Of a DNA stretch of 64,000 bases, positions 35,524 to 42,581 are shown piece after piece. This DNA is from Escherichia coli (GTDB lineage: Bacteria > Pseudomonadota > Gammaproteobacteria > Enterobacterales > Enterobacteriaceae). A program made the position numbers and the translations under genes. The notes under the pieces are model-generated. The model worked only from the letters and a program-made list of their open reading frames with translations. It was not told the DNA's origin and did not search any database. Position 1 is the first letter of the stretch, and each line of letters begins with the position of its first letter. The stretch is from assembly GCF_003334305.1 (NCBI RefSeq), contig NZ_QOWS01000002.1, one strand, 5' to 3'.

Positions 35524-37830
35524 ATGTTTAAGGCCAGGATTTGCGGCTGGATAGGTTTACTTCCCCTGTTTATGCTGAGTCTTCCAGTACAGGCGGAACT
35601 TCGATGTGTTGCAAATACAGTTGATATTGAACCATTTTTTTCTGCGGCTACCGCTGAAGATAAACAACAAGTTGAACAAGCTATCAACAGTAGCGTGAAT
35701 CTTGTCCCCTTCGGTTTATCTGCATCGGACTGGAAAGTGCATCGTGGCGATTTAGTGGTAGAAGGTAATATAGAGAGTAATCAAAAACTGATTGTTCTTG
35801 GTAATTTGACAGTCAAAGGTAATATTTCCACTTTCTCTCTTTCTAATCCATGGGTTATTCTCGGTAACGTGACGGCAACGAATATAGTTACGGATTCACC
35901 ACTGTTAATTACCGGTTCGATAAATGCAAGTGGACTGGTATTTATCGACTCATATTACGATAATCCGTCTACGATTAAGGGGAGTATTAATGCGCGTGGG
36001 ATATTTATCAATGACATAATTGCACCTGTTGTTGCGTCTTCGACAAATAGTGAATTCATGGTCCGTGCGAGTGACAAAAATGACACTGAAAATGTCAAAA
36101 AAGCGCTGATGATAATAAATCCTGATGCATATTATTGGGGTCTAATAAATGATGAAGATGCTCTGAAAGAAATTTTTAAGCGAAGCAATATTCGCATGGC
36201 AGGGAATGTCTGTAATCAGATGAAAAAAGAAGCGCTGTTTCGCCCTAAGCCTTCTCCTGAGTTAGTGCAGGAATTGCAAATGCTGGATGAAGGCAACGTT
36301 GCTGCATTTGAAGGACGAGATATTGCGACATTTGATCTTGCCATAATCCGAACTCTCCCAAGGCTTAAAGGAATTTCAGCTAACCTACGCAAACAACTTA
36401 TTAATAGCAATGATGAACAAACGATTGAAAGTATGGCGAGATATATGCCTGACAATGAGATTCTGGAGTTGACCGATCAGCAATTGGGTTACCAGCCTGT
36501 TGTTCTGTGGTTGCTCGACCGTGAACCGCTCTCTGTCGAAATAATGACGCGAATGAGTCGTCTACCTGATGGTGTCGGTCCGTTGAATCTTGCGCTACGT
36601 GAAAATCTCCCTCTGGATATCGTAATGACTCTGGCGAAAAGAGATTGGGATATGATCATTCAGGAGCTTTATAAAGATGCGTGGTTATTGCCTGAATCCA
36701 TTATTGATGGCTATATCCGCAGTGATGATTCCTCTATTCGTCAGGTCGGTGCTGGAGGACAACTCACCTACAATCAGGCAATGCAGTTGGCGAACGATTC
36801 ATCAAACAATGTTGTCACAAGCTTAGCGTTCAAGCTGGCAGAGATGAAACACCATGGTCAATTATTGCGGATGACGCCACAAGAGAGTGACAAAGTTGCA
36901 GCCTATTTATACCAAAAATTCGAGAATGACGATGATCTAATACGTGTGTTATTTTTAGCATTGCCAGATAACTTACAGTTTAATTTTGTTAAAAGGATGG
37001 AGAAAAAATCCCCTGCCTACTTTTGCTGTCGGGATATGCAGGTAATTCACTCTGACGCTGCTCTACAACGGTTATTGACACGTTTCAACGATCCTGAGGG
37101 GTGGAGTAATCTGGCGAAAAATCAGTATCTGAGCACGTCGATGAAACAAAAAATTTGGCAACGTGCTTTATCGCATCGGAAAAATAATCCGAAAGCAGAT
37201 TCAGCTGCGTATGAAACCAGCGCTGATATGATTTTGTCTGAGCTTATCAGCCACGGTGAAGTTGATGATCAGATGCTATTAAATGCCACAGCCCTGATAC
37301 GTTTGGAAGACTGGGACTTTTTAGAGAGTGCATTAGTTAGTTGGGATAATTTACCCGCTGTTGTCCTCAAGGAATTACAGCAAAATACGCCACGCAATGA
37401 TATTTGGGCGAAGTTTTTTCTGAGGCAGGAAAACAGCTCCCGTGCGCAGGTTGATGAAGCATTACGCGTCTATTATGCACTCGACCCCGATGCGTTAGCA
37501 CAACTGGATGTACTGGCAAAACAACCGGATCGTATATGGTGGAGTACACTGGCGAAAAGCAATCTCACATTTTTCAAGTTCGGCGCACTTAACAACCGCC
37601 ACACACCGCCTGCAGTACTGGCGGCAGAAATTGATCCCGAGTGGTGGATTGTGGCGATGAATAATCCCCGTTTTCCAGTTGATGTATTAAAGGCGAGGCT
37701 GAAACGTGATCCTTTGCTGGCGTTAGAGCTTGTTAACCCTGAACTGGATTTAGTCCGCCAGCTGGCGCTTAACGGTAAGACGCGCGCAATACGGGAACAA
37801 GCGATGAGAAAACTTGATGAGTTGTATTGA
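35524..37830 (+). CDS. ydbD: large secreted protein of unknown function
   Basis: Signal peptide MFKARICGWIGLLPLFMLSLPVQA; about 768 aa; AT-rich codon usage. Confidence 0.85.
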   Translation: MFKARICGWIGLLPLFMLSLPVQAELRCVANTVDIEPFFSAATAEDKQQVEQAINSSVNLVPFGLSASDWKVHRGDLVVEGNIESNQKLIVLGNLTVKGNISTFSLSNPWVILGNVTATNIVTDSPLLITGSINASGLVFIDSYYDNPSTIKGSINARGIFINDIIAPVVASSTNSEFMVRASDKNDTENVKKALMIINPDAYYWGLINDEDALKEIFKRSNIRMAGNVCNQMKKEALFRPKPSPELVQELQMLDEGNVAAFEGRDIATFDLAIIRTLPRLKGISANLRKQLINSNDEQTIESMARYMPDNEILELTDQQLGYQPVVLWLLDREPLSVEIMTRMSRLPDGVGPLNLALRENLPLDIVMTLAKRDWDMIIQELYKDAWLLPESIIDGYIRSDDSSIRQVGAGGQLTYNQAMQLANDSSNNVVTSLAFKLAEMKHHGQLLRMTPQESDKVAAYLYQKFENDDDLIRVLFLALPDNLQFNFVKRMEKKSPAYFCCRDMQVIHSDAALQRLLTRFNDPEGWSNLAKNQYLSTSMKQKIWQRALSHRKNNPKADSAAYETSADMILSELISHGEVDDQMLLNATALIRLEDWDFLESALVSWDNLPAVVLKELQQNTPRNDIWAKFFLRQENSSRAQVDEALRVYYALDPDALAQLDVLAKQPDRIWWSTLAKSNLTFFKFGALNNRHTPPAVLAAEIDPEWWIVAMNNPRFPVDVLKARLKRDPLLALELVNPELDLVRQLALNGKTRAIREQAMRKLDELY

Positions 37831-38000
37831 TCCACAACGTAATATTTCTTAACCCTTTGATTAATTGGGGATAATTATTCCTGACAGTGAGTCCCCAATA
37901 CCTTGATATATTCTGAATTTTTAATGAAGCGGCGTGTTGCGATATCTCCGTCAGGGGAATTGATGCACCATAGCGCAAACCGAATTATCAAGGATTGATA

Positions 38001-38606
38001 ATGACGCTCTACCAGATAAAACCGCTCTTTCAGTCGCTGTTAAGGCCGACGATGTTTTGGCTTTATAAGCACCACGTTACAGCGAATCACATCACTCTTA
38101 CGGCACTGGCGCTTTCTCTTTTTACCGGATTGCTGTTGGTGTTGGTGGCACAACCCATCCTCTTTTTGCTATTGCCCATCGTGCTTTTTATCCGTATGGC
38201 GCTCAATGCGCTGGATGGCATGTTGGCGCGTGAGTGCAATCAGCAAACACGTCTGGGGGCGATTTTGAATGAAACTGGCGATGTTATTTCCGATATTGCG
38301 CTCTATTTACCGTTTTTATTTTTACCGGAAAGTAACGCATCACTCGTAATACTCATGTTATTTTGCACCATATTGACTGAGTTTTGTGGTTTACTCGCGC
38401 AGACAATTAACGGTATTCGCAGTTATGCCGGTCCATTTGGCAAAAGCGATCGCGCGTTAATATTTGGTCTGTGGGGTCTGGCCGTTGCCATTTATCCACA
38501 GTGGATGCAGTGGAATAATCTTTTATGGAGCATTGCTTCAATTCTGCTTCTCTGGACTGCGATTAATCGTTGTCGGAGTGTGCTTCTTATGAGCGCTGAA
38601 AGATAA
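38001..38606 (+). CDS. ynbA: CDP-alcohol phosphatidyltransferase family membrane protein
   Basis: Signature D-G-x2-A-R-x8-G-x3-D-x3-D in LNALDGMLARECNQQTRLGAILNETGDVISD. Confidence 0.85.
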   Translation: MTLYQIKPLFQSLLRPTMFWLYKHHVTANHITLTALALSLFTGLLLVLVAQPILFLLLPIVLFIRMALNALDGMLARECNQQTRLGAILNETGDVISDIALYLPFLFLPESNASLVILMLFCTILTEFCGLLAQTINGIRSYAGPFGKSDRALIFGLWGLAVAIYPQWMQWNNLLWSIASILLLWTAINRCRSVLLMSAER

Positions 38607-41275: not shown

Positions 41276-41288
41276 ACGTCGGAACGTA

Positions 41289-42581
41289 TTGCTACAAGGC
41301 GCTGGCTGGTTATTGTTGCTGGCCCCGTTTTTCTTCTTCACCTATGGATCTCTTAATCAGTTCACCGCGGTTCAGGACCTTAACAGCCATGATATCCCCA
41401 GTCAGGTATTCGGTTGGGAAACGGCGATCCCTTTTCTTCCCTGGACTATTGTTCCTTACTGGAGTCTGGATCTTTTATATGGATTTTCGCTGTTCGTTTG
41501 TAGCACGACATTCGAACAGCGCCGACTTGTCCACCGGCTTATTCTGGCAACGGTAATGGCCTGCTGCGGTTTTTTGCTCTATCCGCTGAAGTTTAGTTTT
41601 ATCCGTCCTGAAGTGAGTGGGGTGACGGGATGGCTATTTTCGCAACTTGAACTGTTTGATCTGCCTTATAACCAGTCTCCTTCGCTGCATATTATTCTCT
41701 GCTGGCTACTTTGGCGTCACTTTCGTCAGCATCTGGCTGAGAGGTGGCGTAAAGTCTGTGGCGGATGGTTTTTACTCATCGCTATTTCTACTCTGACGAC
41801 CTGGCAGCATCATTTTATTGATGTCATCACAGGGCTGGCGGTAGGTATGTTGATTGACTGGATGGTGCCCGTCGATCGTCGTTGGAATTATCAGAAACCT
41901 GATCAACGTCGAATCAAAATAGCACTGCCATATGTCGTAGGCGCGGGCTCGTGCATTGTGTTGATGGAGCTAATGGTGATGATTCAGTTATGGTGGTCAG
42001 TCTGGTTATGTTGGCCAGTATTATCGCTACTCATTATTGGCCGTGGGTACGGTGGGCTTGGCGCGATAACAACAGGGAAAGATAGTCAGGGGAAACTCCC
42101 GCCCGCCGTTTACTGGCTGACATTGCCCTGCCGCATCGGGATGTGGCTGTCTATGCGTTGGTTTTGTCGTCGCCTGGAGCCGGTGAGCAAAATGACTGCT
42201 GGTGTTTATTTAGGGGCGTTTCCACGACATATTCCGGCACAGAATGCGGTTCTGGACGTCACCTTTGAATTCCCTCGCGGACGAGCCACAAAAGATCGAC
42301 TCTATTTCTGTGTACCGATGCTGGATCTGGTGGTTCCGGAAGAGGGGGAGCTCCGACAGGCCGTGGCGATGCTGGAAACATTACGCGAAGAGCAAGGCAG
42401 CGTTCTGGTCCATTGCGCGTTGGGATTATCGCGCAGTGCGCTGGTAGTGGCGGCATGGTTGTTATGTTACGGACACTGTAAAACCGTTGATGAAGCGATT
42501 AGTTATATTCGAGCCAGACGTTCGCATATTGTGCTTAAGGAAGATCACAAAGCGATGCTGAAATTATGGGAAAACAGGTAA
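41289..42581 (+). CDS. ynbD: polytopic membrane protein with C-terminal Cys-based phosphatase domain
   Basis: CX5R active-site HCALGLSRS; probable TTG start at 41289 (the GTG at 41265 is an alternative); overlaps ynbC 3' end. Confidence 0.75.

Follow-up and report, generated by a model that had tools for sequence, protein, structure and literature searches.

Does the ynbABCD operon of Escherichia coli encode a complete lipid head-group pathway of the CDP (cytidine diphosphate)-alcohol type? Such a pathway was proposed in an earlier note on a 64,000-nt stretch of E. coli DNA, here called the window, in which ydbD and the four ynb genes appeared as a single AT-rich block. The placement of the genes is borne out by the RefSeq annotation of strain A7 (NZ_CP028767), which is 100% identical to the window over the studied block and agrees with the gene coordinates, and all five open reading frames (ORFs), ydbD and ynbA to ynbD, are intact in the window. 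Our analysis leads to a modified answer, namely that E. coli carries, as ynbABCD, a reduced version of a widespread six-gene inner-membrane lipid module following a general CDP-alcohol head-group scheme, a reading to which we assign a probability of about 0.5. The genes and domains concerned, all on the + strand, are as follows.

ynbA, 38001-38606, +: 201 aa, divergent CDP-alcohol phosphatidyltransferase
ynbB, 38606-39502, +: 298 aa, CdsA paralogue (CDP-diacylglycerol synthase)
ynbC, 39518-41275, +: hydrolase-methyltransferase fusion
ynbC N-terminal half (residues 32-266), 39611..40315, +: monoacylglycerol-lipase/lysophospholipase-like serine hydrolase
ynbC C-terminal half (residues 275-582), 40340..41263, +: class I S-adenosylmethionine (SAM)-dependent methyltransferase, Methyltransf_20
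ynbD, 41265-42581, +: PAP2-type membrane domain plus dual-specificity phosphatase (DSP) domain
ynbD membrane domain (residues 1-300), 41265..42164, +: eight predicted transmembrane (TM) helices, PAP2 fold
ynbD DSP domain (residues 314-437), 42204..42575, +: Pfam DSPc

A six-gene module shared across bacteria

Loci anchored on YnbC were collected from one genome per species, and all their neighbouring ORFs were clustered. Across the 80 loci obtained, YnbC (80) is accompanied by YnbA (75), YnbD (70), YnbB (62), a PlsC-like acyltransferase (61) and a small membrane protein (47); no seventh conserved partner was found among the neighbouring ORFs of these loci, the remainder being local neighbours. 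The cluster of Snodgrassella is made up of ynbA, ynbB, a PlsC-type acyltransferase gene (PF01553), ynbC, ynbD and the gene for a 135-aa membrane protein, and this order (A-B-AT-C-D-sm, where AT is the acyltransferase and sm the small protein) is seen in 33 of the 55 loci with sufficient flanks. Eight more keep the five enzymes as A-C-D…AT/B, and some clusters are without YnbB, having A-C-D only. Among the hosts are Citrobacter, Hafnia, Serratia, Yersinia pestis, Pectobacterium, Pantoea and Providencia in the Enterobacterales, Cupriavidus, Thiobacillus, Lysobacter, Xanthomonas and Roseomonas elsewhere in the Beta-, Gamma- and Alphaproteobacteria, and, further afield, Desulfovibrio, Acidobacteria, Rokubacteria and one planctomycete. 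Natural fusions join YnbA to YnbC (family P0171), YnbA to the acyltransferase (P0195) and YnbC to a DSP domain. The acyltransferase that is missing from E. coli resembles lysophospholipid/acylglycerolphosphate (AGP) acyltransferases; for the small membrane protein no family match was found. Co-location of the ynb genes in about 70 species of several phyla, together with the fusions, supports the original idea that the four ynb products carry out steps of one CDP-alcohol head-group pathway. The further claim, that this pathway is complete in E. coli, does not stand, since two of the six genes of the conserved module, those for the PlsC-like acyltransferase and the small membrane protein, are missing there.

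The interval from ydbH to azoR-hrpA that houses ynbABCD in E. coli also holds the six-gene form in several related enterics, Citrobacter, Phytobacter ursingii and Superficieibacter among them. From this shared ydbH…azoR position it follows that ynbABCD of E. coli is a vertical descendant minus the acyltransferase and the small protein. Gene loss in E. coli was clean, with 15 nt left between ynbB and ynbC. The chain of overlaps described for the E. coli genes is confirmed for ynbA and ynbB, which share 1 nt (TAATG), whereas that of ynbC and ynbD depends on the start codon: it is 11 nt with the GTG at 41265 annotated in the present strain and becomes a 13-nt gap with the TTG at 41289, 24 nt downstream, at which ynbD starts in other E. 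coli records. A 4-nt ynbC/ynbD overlap in both Snodgrassella and Vibrio suggests that tight coupling of these two genes is the general rule. In Vibrio fluvialis (locus L006, 8980-14420), a 130-aa ORF between ynbA and ynbC consists of the first ~89 residues of YnbB and the last 33 of the acyltransferase and is, to judge by this composition, a deletion scar. This cluster retains the small protein and is directly adjoined by a resolvase gene, and the resolvase adjacency and the scar together indicate a module that is mobile and prone to erosion.

Variation around the module took several other forms. The distance from ydbH to the ynb cluster is a few kb in Citrobacter-type genomes (for example L009); in E. 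coli, ~20 kb (feaRB, tynA, paa genes, pdxI and ydbD; window 15668-38000) separates ydbH-ynbE-ydbL from ynbA, from which we infer a large insertion in the Escherichia lineage. Thaumasiovibrio occultus (L091, 8001-12933) has, after YnbA and YnbC, a patatin-like phospholipase and an SDR (short-chain dehydrogenase) that replace YnbD, with a short CTP_transf_1 gene on the opposite strand. In a metagenome-assembled genome (L092, 3220-9543), a divergent YnbA-YnbB pair comes after a CapK_C-like (adenylate-forming) protein and faces a large fusion of major facilitator superfamily (MFS), acyltransferase and AMP-binding domains of the LplT/Aas lysophospholipid-recycling type. Serratia sp. DD3 shows the six-gene cluster on three contigs (L018, L086 and L087) with identical coordinates and identities, which is probably an assembly duplication.

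YnbA is a divergent member of the CDP-alcohol phosphatidyltransferases

YnbA matches the CDP-alcohol phosphatidyltransferase family weakly but over its full length (PF01066, CDP-OH_P_transf; E 3.8e-9, 37.5 bits, residues 27-175 against positions 3-148 of a 152-position model), and its top match in the Protein Data Bank (PDB) is mycobacterial phosphatidylinositol-phosphate (PIP) synthase. Members of this family are described as sharing eight absolutely conserved residues in the motif D1xxD2GxxAR…GxxxD3xxxD4, of which D1-D3 are di-metal ligands and D4 is the putative base, and a cytidine-binding P(D/N)xx(T/S) motif on TM1 (PMC4634129, PMC6506517). The form of the motif reported in the earlier note, DG-x2-AR-x8-G-x3-D-x3-D, is absent from YnbA, in which the regular expression DG..AR.{7,8}G...D...D finds no match. 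Alignment to mycobacterial PIP synthase instead gives N69-AL-D72-G-ML-AR-x8-G-AIL-N90-ETG-D94-VIS-D98, that is N-x2-DG-x2-AR-x8-G-x3-N-x3-D-x3-D. Six of the eight canonical signature residues are present, with N69 at D1 and N90 at D3. Nor are the aspartates conserved in orthologues at these two positions. When 132 YnbA representatives, at most 50% identical to each other, were aligned with MAFFT, D1 and D3 were Asn family-wide (130/132), as they are in 114 of 120 close homologues, which argues that the Asn/Asn pair is no lesion of the present strain.

The rest of the site is well preserved in the same alignment. D72 is kept, D94 (D4, the putative base) is found in 131 of the 132 representatives, and in the cytidine motif N29 is found in 128 and T32 in 130. 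The representatives also share invariant R65, E91, D98, E127, R140, G144-P-x-G-K148-S-D-R151 and R190. K148 is aligned with R152 of Mycobacterium tuberculosis PgsA1, which binds a sulfate taken as the mark of the phosphate of the acceptor, inositol phosphate (Ino-P) (PMC4634129, PMC6506517). Scores against curated models are all far below the cutoff, at 74.3 bits for archaetidylinositol-phosphate synthase (cutoff 180), 47.1 for PIP synthase (PIPS; 170) and 29 for PgsA (109). We read YnbA, from its sequence, as a distinct subfamily that would bind a CDP-linked donor and an anionic acceptor. Because its nearest relatives are inositol-phosphate synthases and K148 aligns with R152, a scheme in which a phosphorylated lipid is made and then dephosphorylated would fit. 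That the change of D3 to Asn removes the catalytic base, and hence points to a phosphate acceptor and to N-acetylglucosamine (GlcNAc)-PP-diacylglycerol (DAG) as the product, was reduced to a variant of the MPIase reading discussed below, D4 being the putative base and D1-D3 metal ligands (PMC4634129, PMC6506517). Motif classes obtained with a loose regular expression on divergent YnbA relatives were spurious and are superseded by the MAFFT alignment.

Partner enzymes of YnbA

YnbB belongs to the CTP_transf_1 family (PF01148, E 4e-70). The CdsA (phosphatidate cytidylyltransferase) signature that had been noticed in it by eye is present at residues 254-280, the pattern used being what we take to be the form of PROSITE PS01315. 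Against the NCBIfam CdsA equivalog NF008635 the protein scores 111.9 bits (cutoff 385), matching over residues 160-291 only. The published work on YnbB has established that it synthesises CDP-DAG in vitro, that in its N-terminal half it bears no relation to CdsA and that it fails to complement a cdsA deletion for phospholipid synthesis; cold induction has also been reported. Overproduction of YnbB raises the level of the glycolipid MPIase and, under CdsA depletion, restores MPIase and not bulk phospholipid. Deletion of ynbB has no phenotype, MPIase included, CdsA alone being sufficient. The MPIase papers ascribe the synthesis of compound I to CdsA/YnbB and do not mention ynbA, and a search of the openly searchable literature found nothing on MPIase levels for the other three Ynb proteins.

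YnbC is indeed the fusion of a serine-hydrolase-like domain with a SAM methyltransferase that had been recognized from the sequence, Pfam assigning residues 32-266 to Hydrolase_4 (PF12146, E 2.3e-67) and residues 275-582 to Methyltransf_20. The best PDB matches of the hydrolase half are monoglyceride lipases (E 1e-16). H40-R-G-H43, S115 (AQSVG; A/G-Q-S-V-G), D230 and H260 are invariant in 67 YnbC orthologues, and S115/D230/H260 would constitute the catalytic triad, D230 and H260 being assigned by position. Likewise invariant are the SAM motif residues D413, G417, G419 and D439 of the C-terminal half, a class I methyltransferase of an uncharacterised family with the Rossmann-type fold, the SAM-binding motif I and the acidic residue that ends strand 2. 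A fold search gave no lead to the substrate class of the methyltransferase, its top PDB match being an uncharacterised structural-genomics protein and its AlphaFold database (AFDB) matches unannotated orthologues. A polyphosphate phenotype of a ynbC transposon mutant has been described as strain-specific and attributed to stress.

The description of YnbD as a polytopic membrane protein with a CX5R phosphatase domain holds for the phosphatase (HCALGLSRS at 383; DSPc, residues 314-437, E 2.4e-26) but understates the membrane domain, which has a PAP2 fold near those of sphingomyelin synthases (SMS) and inositol phosphorylceramide (IPC) synthases. Pfam recognizes this domain weakly as PAP2/PAP2_3. 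Its model has eight TM helices with a confidence (pLDDT) of 91.8, and the fold is nearest SMSr and Aur1 (sequence identity 10-12%), nearer than to PAP2 phosphatases. The PAP2 motifs C2 (P139-S-L-H142) and C3 (S175-x6-H182(-H183)-x3-D186) are invariant in 58 YnbD orthologues, with the C3 Arg absent. In the C1 region R114-P115 is nearly invariant and K109 is spaced by x4, against x6 in the canonical Kx6RP; SMS-type PAP2 members typically have a C1 that is degenerate or lacking. The DSP P-loop reads H383-C-A-L-G-L-S-R390-S, and D354, C384, G387, R390 and S391 are invariant in the same 58 orthologues; PDB matches of this domain are dual-specificity phosphatases, the lipid phosphatase PTPMT1 among them (E 1e-4 to 1e-6). 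The PAP2 site is predicted to be periplasmic and the DSP domain cytoplasmic. Overexpressed YnbD rescues neither mutants in undecaprenyl pyrophosphate (C55-PP) phosphatases nor a pgpA pgpB pgpC mutant, and no growth defect has been reported for a ynbD deletion (PMC7413402). The failure to complement is compatible with a transferase role and is no proof of one.

Selection on the operon in E. coli

Of 5426 complete E. coli genomes from across the phylogroups, 4284 (79%) carry ynbABCD at 80% completeness or more, and about 800 (~15%) have no copy of it; ydbD and ynbABCD occur together in 3756 genomes, compared with the 4284 for ynbABCD alone. The ratio of nonsynonymous to synonymous substitution rates (dN/dS), taken from comparisons with E. 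whittamii and with two divergent strains of E. coli, is 0.07-0.28 per ynb gene (ynbA 0.07-0.16). The operon is dispensable, and its genes are under purifying selection, somewhat relaxed. Lesions do occur, as an internal stop in ynbC of one O157:H7 strain and an IS1 element in ynbB of another strain, and ynbD is missing in E. whittamii and Phytobacter massiliensis. The ynbA promoter, located in the 170-nt ydbD-ynbA spacer, depends on activation by BglJ-RcsB, and H-NS in turn silences bglJ (PMC3950696). None of the five proteins matched a PADLOC defence model, and an anti-phage defence system was ruled out on this ground. The openly searchable literature yielded no paper giving a function to ynbA, ynbC, ynbD, PF12147/DUF2773 or the conserved cluster.

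Within E. coli the six-gene form was found only on three large plasmids, in degraded form and near colicin M genes. Plasmid pFHI_NMBU_11_02 (L088, 6001-10135) carries a Citrobacter-like cluster, ~78% identical and with the acyltransferase included, in which ynbA is frameshifted and ynbD is cut to a 73-aa fragment. Synonymous divergence (dS) from E. whittamii (L008) is 0.74-0.75 for ynbA and ynbB, 0.35 for ynbC and 0.42 for ydbD; the roughly twofold higher values of ynbA and ynbB suggest that the operon is a mosaic or has undergone internal recombination.

Base composition sets ydbD apart from the ynb genes

The AT-richness ascribed to the whole block is confined to part of it. The 4-kb stretch ydbD-ynbB has a GC content of 0.435, the minimum of the window (0.497 overall; 0.5% of 4-kb segments are as low), whereas ynbC-ynbD, at 0.505, equals the window average. 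Against a mean GC at third codon positions (GC3) of 0.511 (sd 0.043) for the window's 44 remaining genes, ydbD is the sole outlier in the block (0.402, z -2.5). The value of ynbB is slightly reduced (0.452, z -1.4), and those of ynbA (0.495), ynbC (0.486) and ynbD (0.515) are normal. The low GC of ynbA and ynbB is located at codon positions 1 and 2 (GC1 0.485 and 0.445) and comes with a strong T-skew, a pattern that we ascribe to their encoding hydrophobic membrane proteins. In 62 other species the homologous cluster exceeds its flanks in GC by a mean of 0.021. AT-richness is thus a property of ydbD and not of the ynb module: with GC3 normal for ynbA, ynbC and ynbD and the cluster GC-richer than its flanks in 62 species, it is no ynb signature.

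ydbD, 35524-37830, +: 768 aa (RefSeq, Pfam, GC3)
ydbD-ynbA spacer, 37831..38000, +: 170 nt, promoter-bearing (PMC3950696)

YdbD has a C-terminal DUF2773 domain in Pfam, with a marginal bactofilin match (E 0.048); its RefSeq label is 'DUF2773 domain-containing bactofilin'. The N-terminus (35524-35595) resembles a Sec signal peptide, MFKARICGWIGLLPLFMLSLPVQA, followed by ELR, and on this evidence YdbD is likely periplasmic or secreted. The gene is confined to the Escherichia locus among the 80 surveyed. Its inclusion in one unit with ynbABCD is not sustained, since it is Escherichia-only and flanked by a terminator of its own, and ynbA is served by a separate promoter. It is an unrelated gene of foreign composition that adjoins the conserved ynb module without belonging to it.

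A proposed pathway and competing explanations

From the preceding results a pathway can be drawn for the module. The acyltransferase, lost in E. coli, and YnbB would supply a private pool of phosphatidate and CDP-diacylglycerol, which may be channelled. YnbA, resembling PIP synthase with a remodelled metal site, would place the phosphatidyl group on an alcohol that is common, anionic and probably phosphorylated, a step for which its retained base Asp, cytidine-binding motif and basic acceptor-phosphate site would equip it. The cytoplasmic DSP domain of YnbD would then strip the phosphate from the head group, by analogy with PIP and phosphatidylglycerophosphate (PGP) phosphatases including PTPMT1. 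YnbC, in the cytoplasm, may methylate (with SAM) and/or deacylate the lipid or a precursor. Once flipped, the lipid could serve as a phospho-head-group donor for the periplasmic PAP2 domain of YnbD, as the fold and topology of this domain suggest, with an envelope component or water as the acceptor and release of diacylglycerol. We hold this final head-group transfer with less confidence than the general scheme. A tentative extension, more doubtful than the scheme itself, is that the module is a hitherto overlooked envelope-modification system of Proteobacteria and other Gram-negative phyla, in which a dedicated donor lipid of low abundance, built from the private CDP-DAG pool and with a methylated head group, would decorate lipid A or lipopolysaccharide (LPS), glucans, a glycolipid or protein; the logic would be akin to that of phosphatidylethanolamine (PE)-dependent EptA or phosphatidylglycerol (PG)-dependent substitution of osmoregulated periplasmic glucans (OPG), with the module bringing its own donor lipid.

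Several observations weigh against the six-gene module reading. With two of the six genes missing, the pathway in E. coli may be incomplete or rewired, and with two of eight absolutely conserved residues missing, the chemistry of YnbA may differ from phosphatidyl transfer to an alcohol. No head-group-synthesis gene that would identify the alcohol, such as one for inositol-phosphate synthase, is linked in the 80 loci. The order of the steps and the role and position given to YnbC are guesses, and the topology of YnbD was derived from hydropathy, positive-inside counting and the helix boundaries of an AlphaFold2 (AF2) model. Finally, the sole published functional data link YnbB to MPIase and not to a new phospholipid.

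These data raise the possibility that the operon, or ynbB at least, is a back-up that supplies GlcNAc-PP-DAG, the earliest intermediate on the way to the essential glycolipid MPIase; YnbA could then be a CDP-DAG:GlcNAc-1-phosphate phosphatidyltransferase, with the PAP2 domain of YnbD acting on the pyrophosphate lipid. Such a role would agree with the effects of YnbB overproduction on MPIase and not on bulk phospholipid, with the cold induction, with the 1-nt ynbA/ynbB overlap and with a YnbA metal site that has two negative charges fewer and could suit a more anionic acceptor; PAP2 enzymes, for their part, commonly act on lipid pyrophosphates. We nevertheless consider it unlikely, for loss of ynbB leaves MPIase unaffected as long as CdsA is present, the papers that ascribe compound I synthesis to CdsA/YnbB leave ynbA unmentioned, and YnbA retains the base Asp needed to deprotonate an alcohol. 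The distribution of the genes also speaks against it. The MPIase glycan resembles the enterobacterial common antigen, which is not known from outside the Enterobacterales, whereas the module is kept in Cupriavidus, Lysobacter, Xanthomonas, Desulfovibrio, Acidobacteria and Rokubacteria. Several clusters have A-C-D only and no YnbB, and ~15% of E. coli genomes are without the operon although MPIase is essential. A duplicate of a known pathway, in which YnbA and YnbD repeat phosphatidylglycerol synthesis (PgsA plus PGP phosphatase) or make phosphatidylinositol, is highly improbable. YnbA does share a superfamily with PgsA and PIPS, PTPMT1 is among the PDB matches of YnbD, and the layout of PIPS, phosphatase and AUR1-like protein parallels that of Bacteroides (PMC9246714), but the failure of YnbD to rescue the pgpA pgpB pgpC and C55-PP phosphatase mutants (PMC7413402) largely refutes the PGP version. 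YnbA reaches 29 of the 109 bits required for PgsA and 47 of the 170 for PIPS and has its family-specific Asn/Asn motif, and inositol-phosphate synthase is unlinked in 80 of 80 loci. To our knowledge, E. coli makes neither inositol lipids nor ceramide.

Whether the E. coli locus does anything at all is a separate matter, since a four-gene locus lacking two of six conserved genes might be a non-functional leftover, normally silent and heading for loss. The absence of the operon from about 800 of 5426 genomes and its partial state in others, the ynbC stop in O157:H7, the IS1 in ynbB, the missing ynbD of E. whittamii and Phytobacter massiliensis and the frameshifted or truncated plasmid copies would all be expected of such a remnant, as would the lack of a reported growth defect in ynbB and ynbD deletions and a promoter that requires BglJ-RcsB when bglJ is H-NS-silenced (PMC3950696). 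Against this, the four genes have dN/dS values of 0.07-0.28 whether compared among E. coli strains or with E. whittamii, all the catalytic residues examined are intact, the ORFs are intact and tightly coupled, and 79% of complete genomes, from across the phylogroups, have kept the operon nearly whole; decay is therefore improbable. We doubt still more that the 7-kb ydbD-ynbD block was acquired horizontally as one foreign, H-NS-silenced, AT-rich island, which would hold for ydbD at most. The GC3 of ydbD (0.402, z -2.5), its restriction to Escherichia and the lowest-GC 4 kb of ydbD-ynbB favour an island, as do the mobility of the module elsewhere (resolvase-adjacent in Vibrio, on plasmids in E. 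coli) and the 70-76% identity to Snodgrassella and Vibrio proteins, which is high for such distant hosts. However, GC3 is normal for ynbA, ynbC and ynbD and GC is average over ynbC-ynbD; the ynb genes share their ydbH…azoR site with the six-gene cluster of related enterics and were therefore vertically inherited within the Enterobacteriaceae; ydbD and ynbABCD occur independently across strains and are separated by the promoter-bearing 170-nt spacer; and H-NS repression of ynbA itself is not reported in the accessible part of PMC3950696.

If ynbABCD is, as we favour, a reduced lipid module, the six-gene cluster of Citrobacter or Snodgrassella is the preferable one for heterologous expression and lipidomics. 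The lipidome of E. coli and its biosynthetic genes are usually held to be essentially complete; a conserved multi-enzyme module that purifying selection maintains in most E. coli, and likewise in dozens of genera, suggests that a lipid or a modification of the envelope has been overlooked.

Features flanking the block

Beyond the ynb genes and ydbD, the following features border the block.

pdxI, 34600-35460: RefSeq annotation
putative bidirectional terminator, 35468..35497, between pdxI and ydbD: hairpin with a 12-bp stem and T-runs on both strands, from a terminator scan
inverted repeat GATGTGGACTG-AACTA-CAGTCCACATC, 42591..42617, between the convergent ynbD and azoR: read from the sequence
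azoR, 42632-43237, -: followed by hrpA

The strong pdxI-ydbD hairpin is likely to act as a bidirectional terminator that insulates ydbD from the genes 5' of it. The ynbD-azoR inverted repeat is a possible bidirectional terminator too, left unflagged by the scan because it has no T-run. A search of the locus against Rfam gave a single sub-threshold match, on the pdxI-ydbD terminator hairpin, and none in the ydbD-ynbA spacer, and a riboswitch or leader RNA as a clue to the ligand was dropped for this reason. A promoter scan returned fewer sites than shuffled controls and is on that account uninformative about the ynbA promoter. An ORF of 122 aa at 42566-42934, overlapping the end of ynbD and antisense to azoR, was considered as a remnant of the small membrane protein; it showed no similarity and is probably a chance ORF. 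Elsewhere in the window, the paa (phenylacetate) cluster is damaged at 24214-26809, where paaZ is an N-terminally truncated pseudogene overlapped by paaE (from 25799) and paaA-D are absent, pointing to an internal deletion. At the right edge of the window (63522-64000) stands an IS200/IS605-family tnpA pseudogene with a frameshift and an internal stop.

Relation to known systems

The proposed pathway is of a known kind, that of CDP-alcohol-dependent phospholipid head-group pathways. Its new aspects would be an Asn/Asp/Asn/Asp transferase subfamily, an enzyme combining an SMS-like domain with a DSP domain, a hydrolase-methyltransferase fusion, and a private CdsA together with an acyltransferase. 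Set beside PgsA, type II PssA, PIP synthase and AF2299/DIPPS, YnbA keeps the DG-x2-AR…G core, D2, D4 and the cytidine motif and, like the canonical CDP-alcohol transferases, is polytopic and of similar size (~200 aa), but it differs from them in the Asn residues at D1 and D3, in the extra invariant GPxGKSDR block and in its sub-cutoff scores. The subfamily breaks the 'absolutely conserved' four-aspartate rule and offers a natural test case for the two-metal mechanism. YnbB shares with CdsA the C-terminal catalytic half and the signature, and CDP-DAG synthesis in vitro and a rise in MPIase on its overproduction are further points of likeness; it differs in its unrelated N-terminal half, in not supporting bulk phospholipid synthesis and in the position of its gene inside a lipid module with YnbA. 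The view of YnbB as an MPIase back-up may accordingly be recast, slow release of CDP-DAG by YnbB possibly reflecting channelling to YnbA.

YnbD would be a bacterial protein with an SMS/IPC-synthase-like domain and a cytoplasmic DSP domain on opposite sides of the membrane. It shares with SMS1/2, SMSr, Aur1, PgpB, LpxE and LpxT the PAP2 fold, the His/His/Asp set and a predicted non-cytoplasmic active site, whereas its 10-12% identity, two extra TM helices and fused cytoplasmic DSP domain distinguish it from SMS/IPC synthases and PAP2 phosphatases alike, and it is no substitute in vivo for PgpB, YbjG or BacA (PMC7413402). With phosphatases of the PTPMT1/PTEN type it has in common the HCx5R(S/T) P-loop and an invariant Asp resembling a general acid, and these enzymes are a precedent for dephosphorylation of lipid head groups by a DSP fold. 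The likeness is of a kind seen with dual-specificity phosphatases in general, the domain in YnbD is attached to a membrane domain of eight TM helices, and PGP phosphatase activity of the PTPMT1 kind is ruled out for YnbD in vivo by the failed complementation (PMC7413402).

The closest parallel for the module as a whole is the BT_1522-BT_1526 cluster of Bacteroides thetaiotaomicron, which encodes myo-inositol-phosphate synthase (MIPS), PIP synthase, a PgpA-like PIP phosphatase and an AUR1-like phosphatidylinositol (PI)-dihydroceramide synthase (PMC9246714). Both have the order CDP-alcohol transferase, phosphatase, IPC-synthase-like PAP2 protein; the relatives of YnbA are inositol-phosphate synthases, and the membrane domain of YnbD is structurally near SMSr and Aur1. 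We know of no ynb-module host that makes ceramide. In contrast to the Bacteroides cluster, the ynb module has no linked head-group synthase, and its phosphatase is a DSP domain fused to PAP2 instead of a separate PgpA-like protein. It adds CdsA, the PlsC-like acyltransferase, the hydrolase-methyltransferase and the small membrane protein, and its transferase has Asn at D1 and D3.

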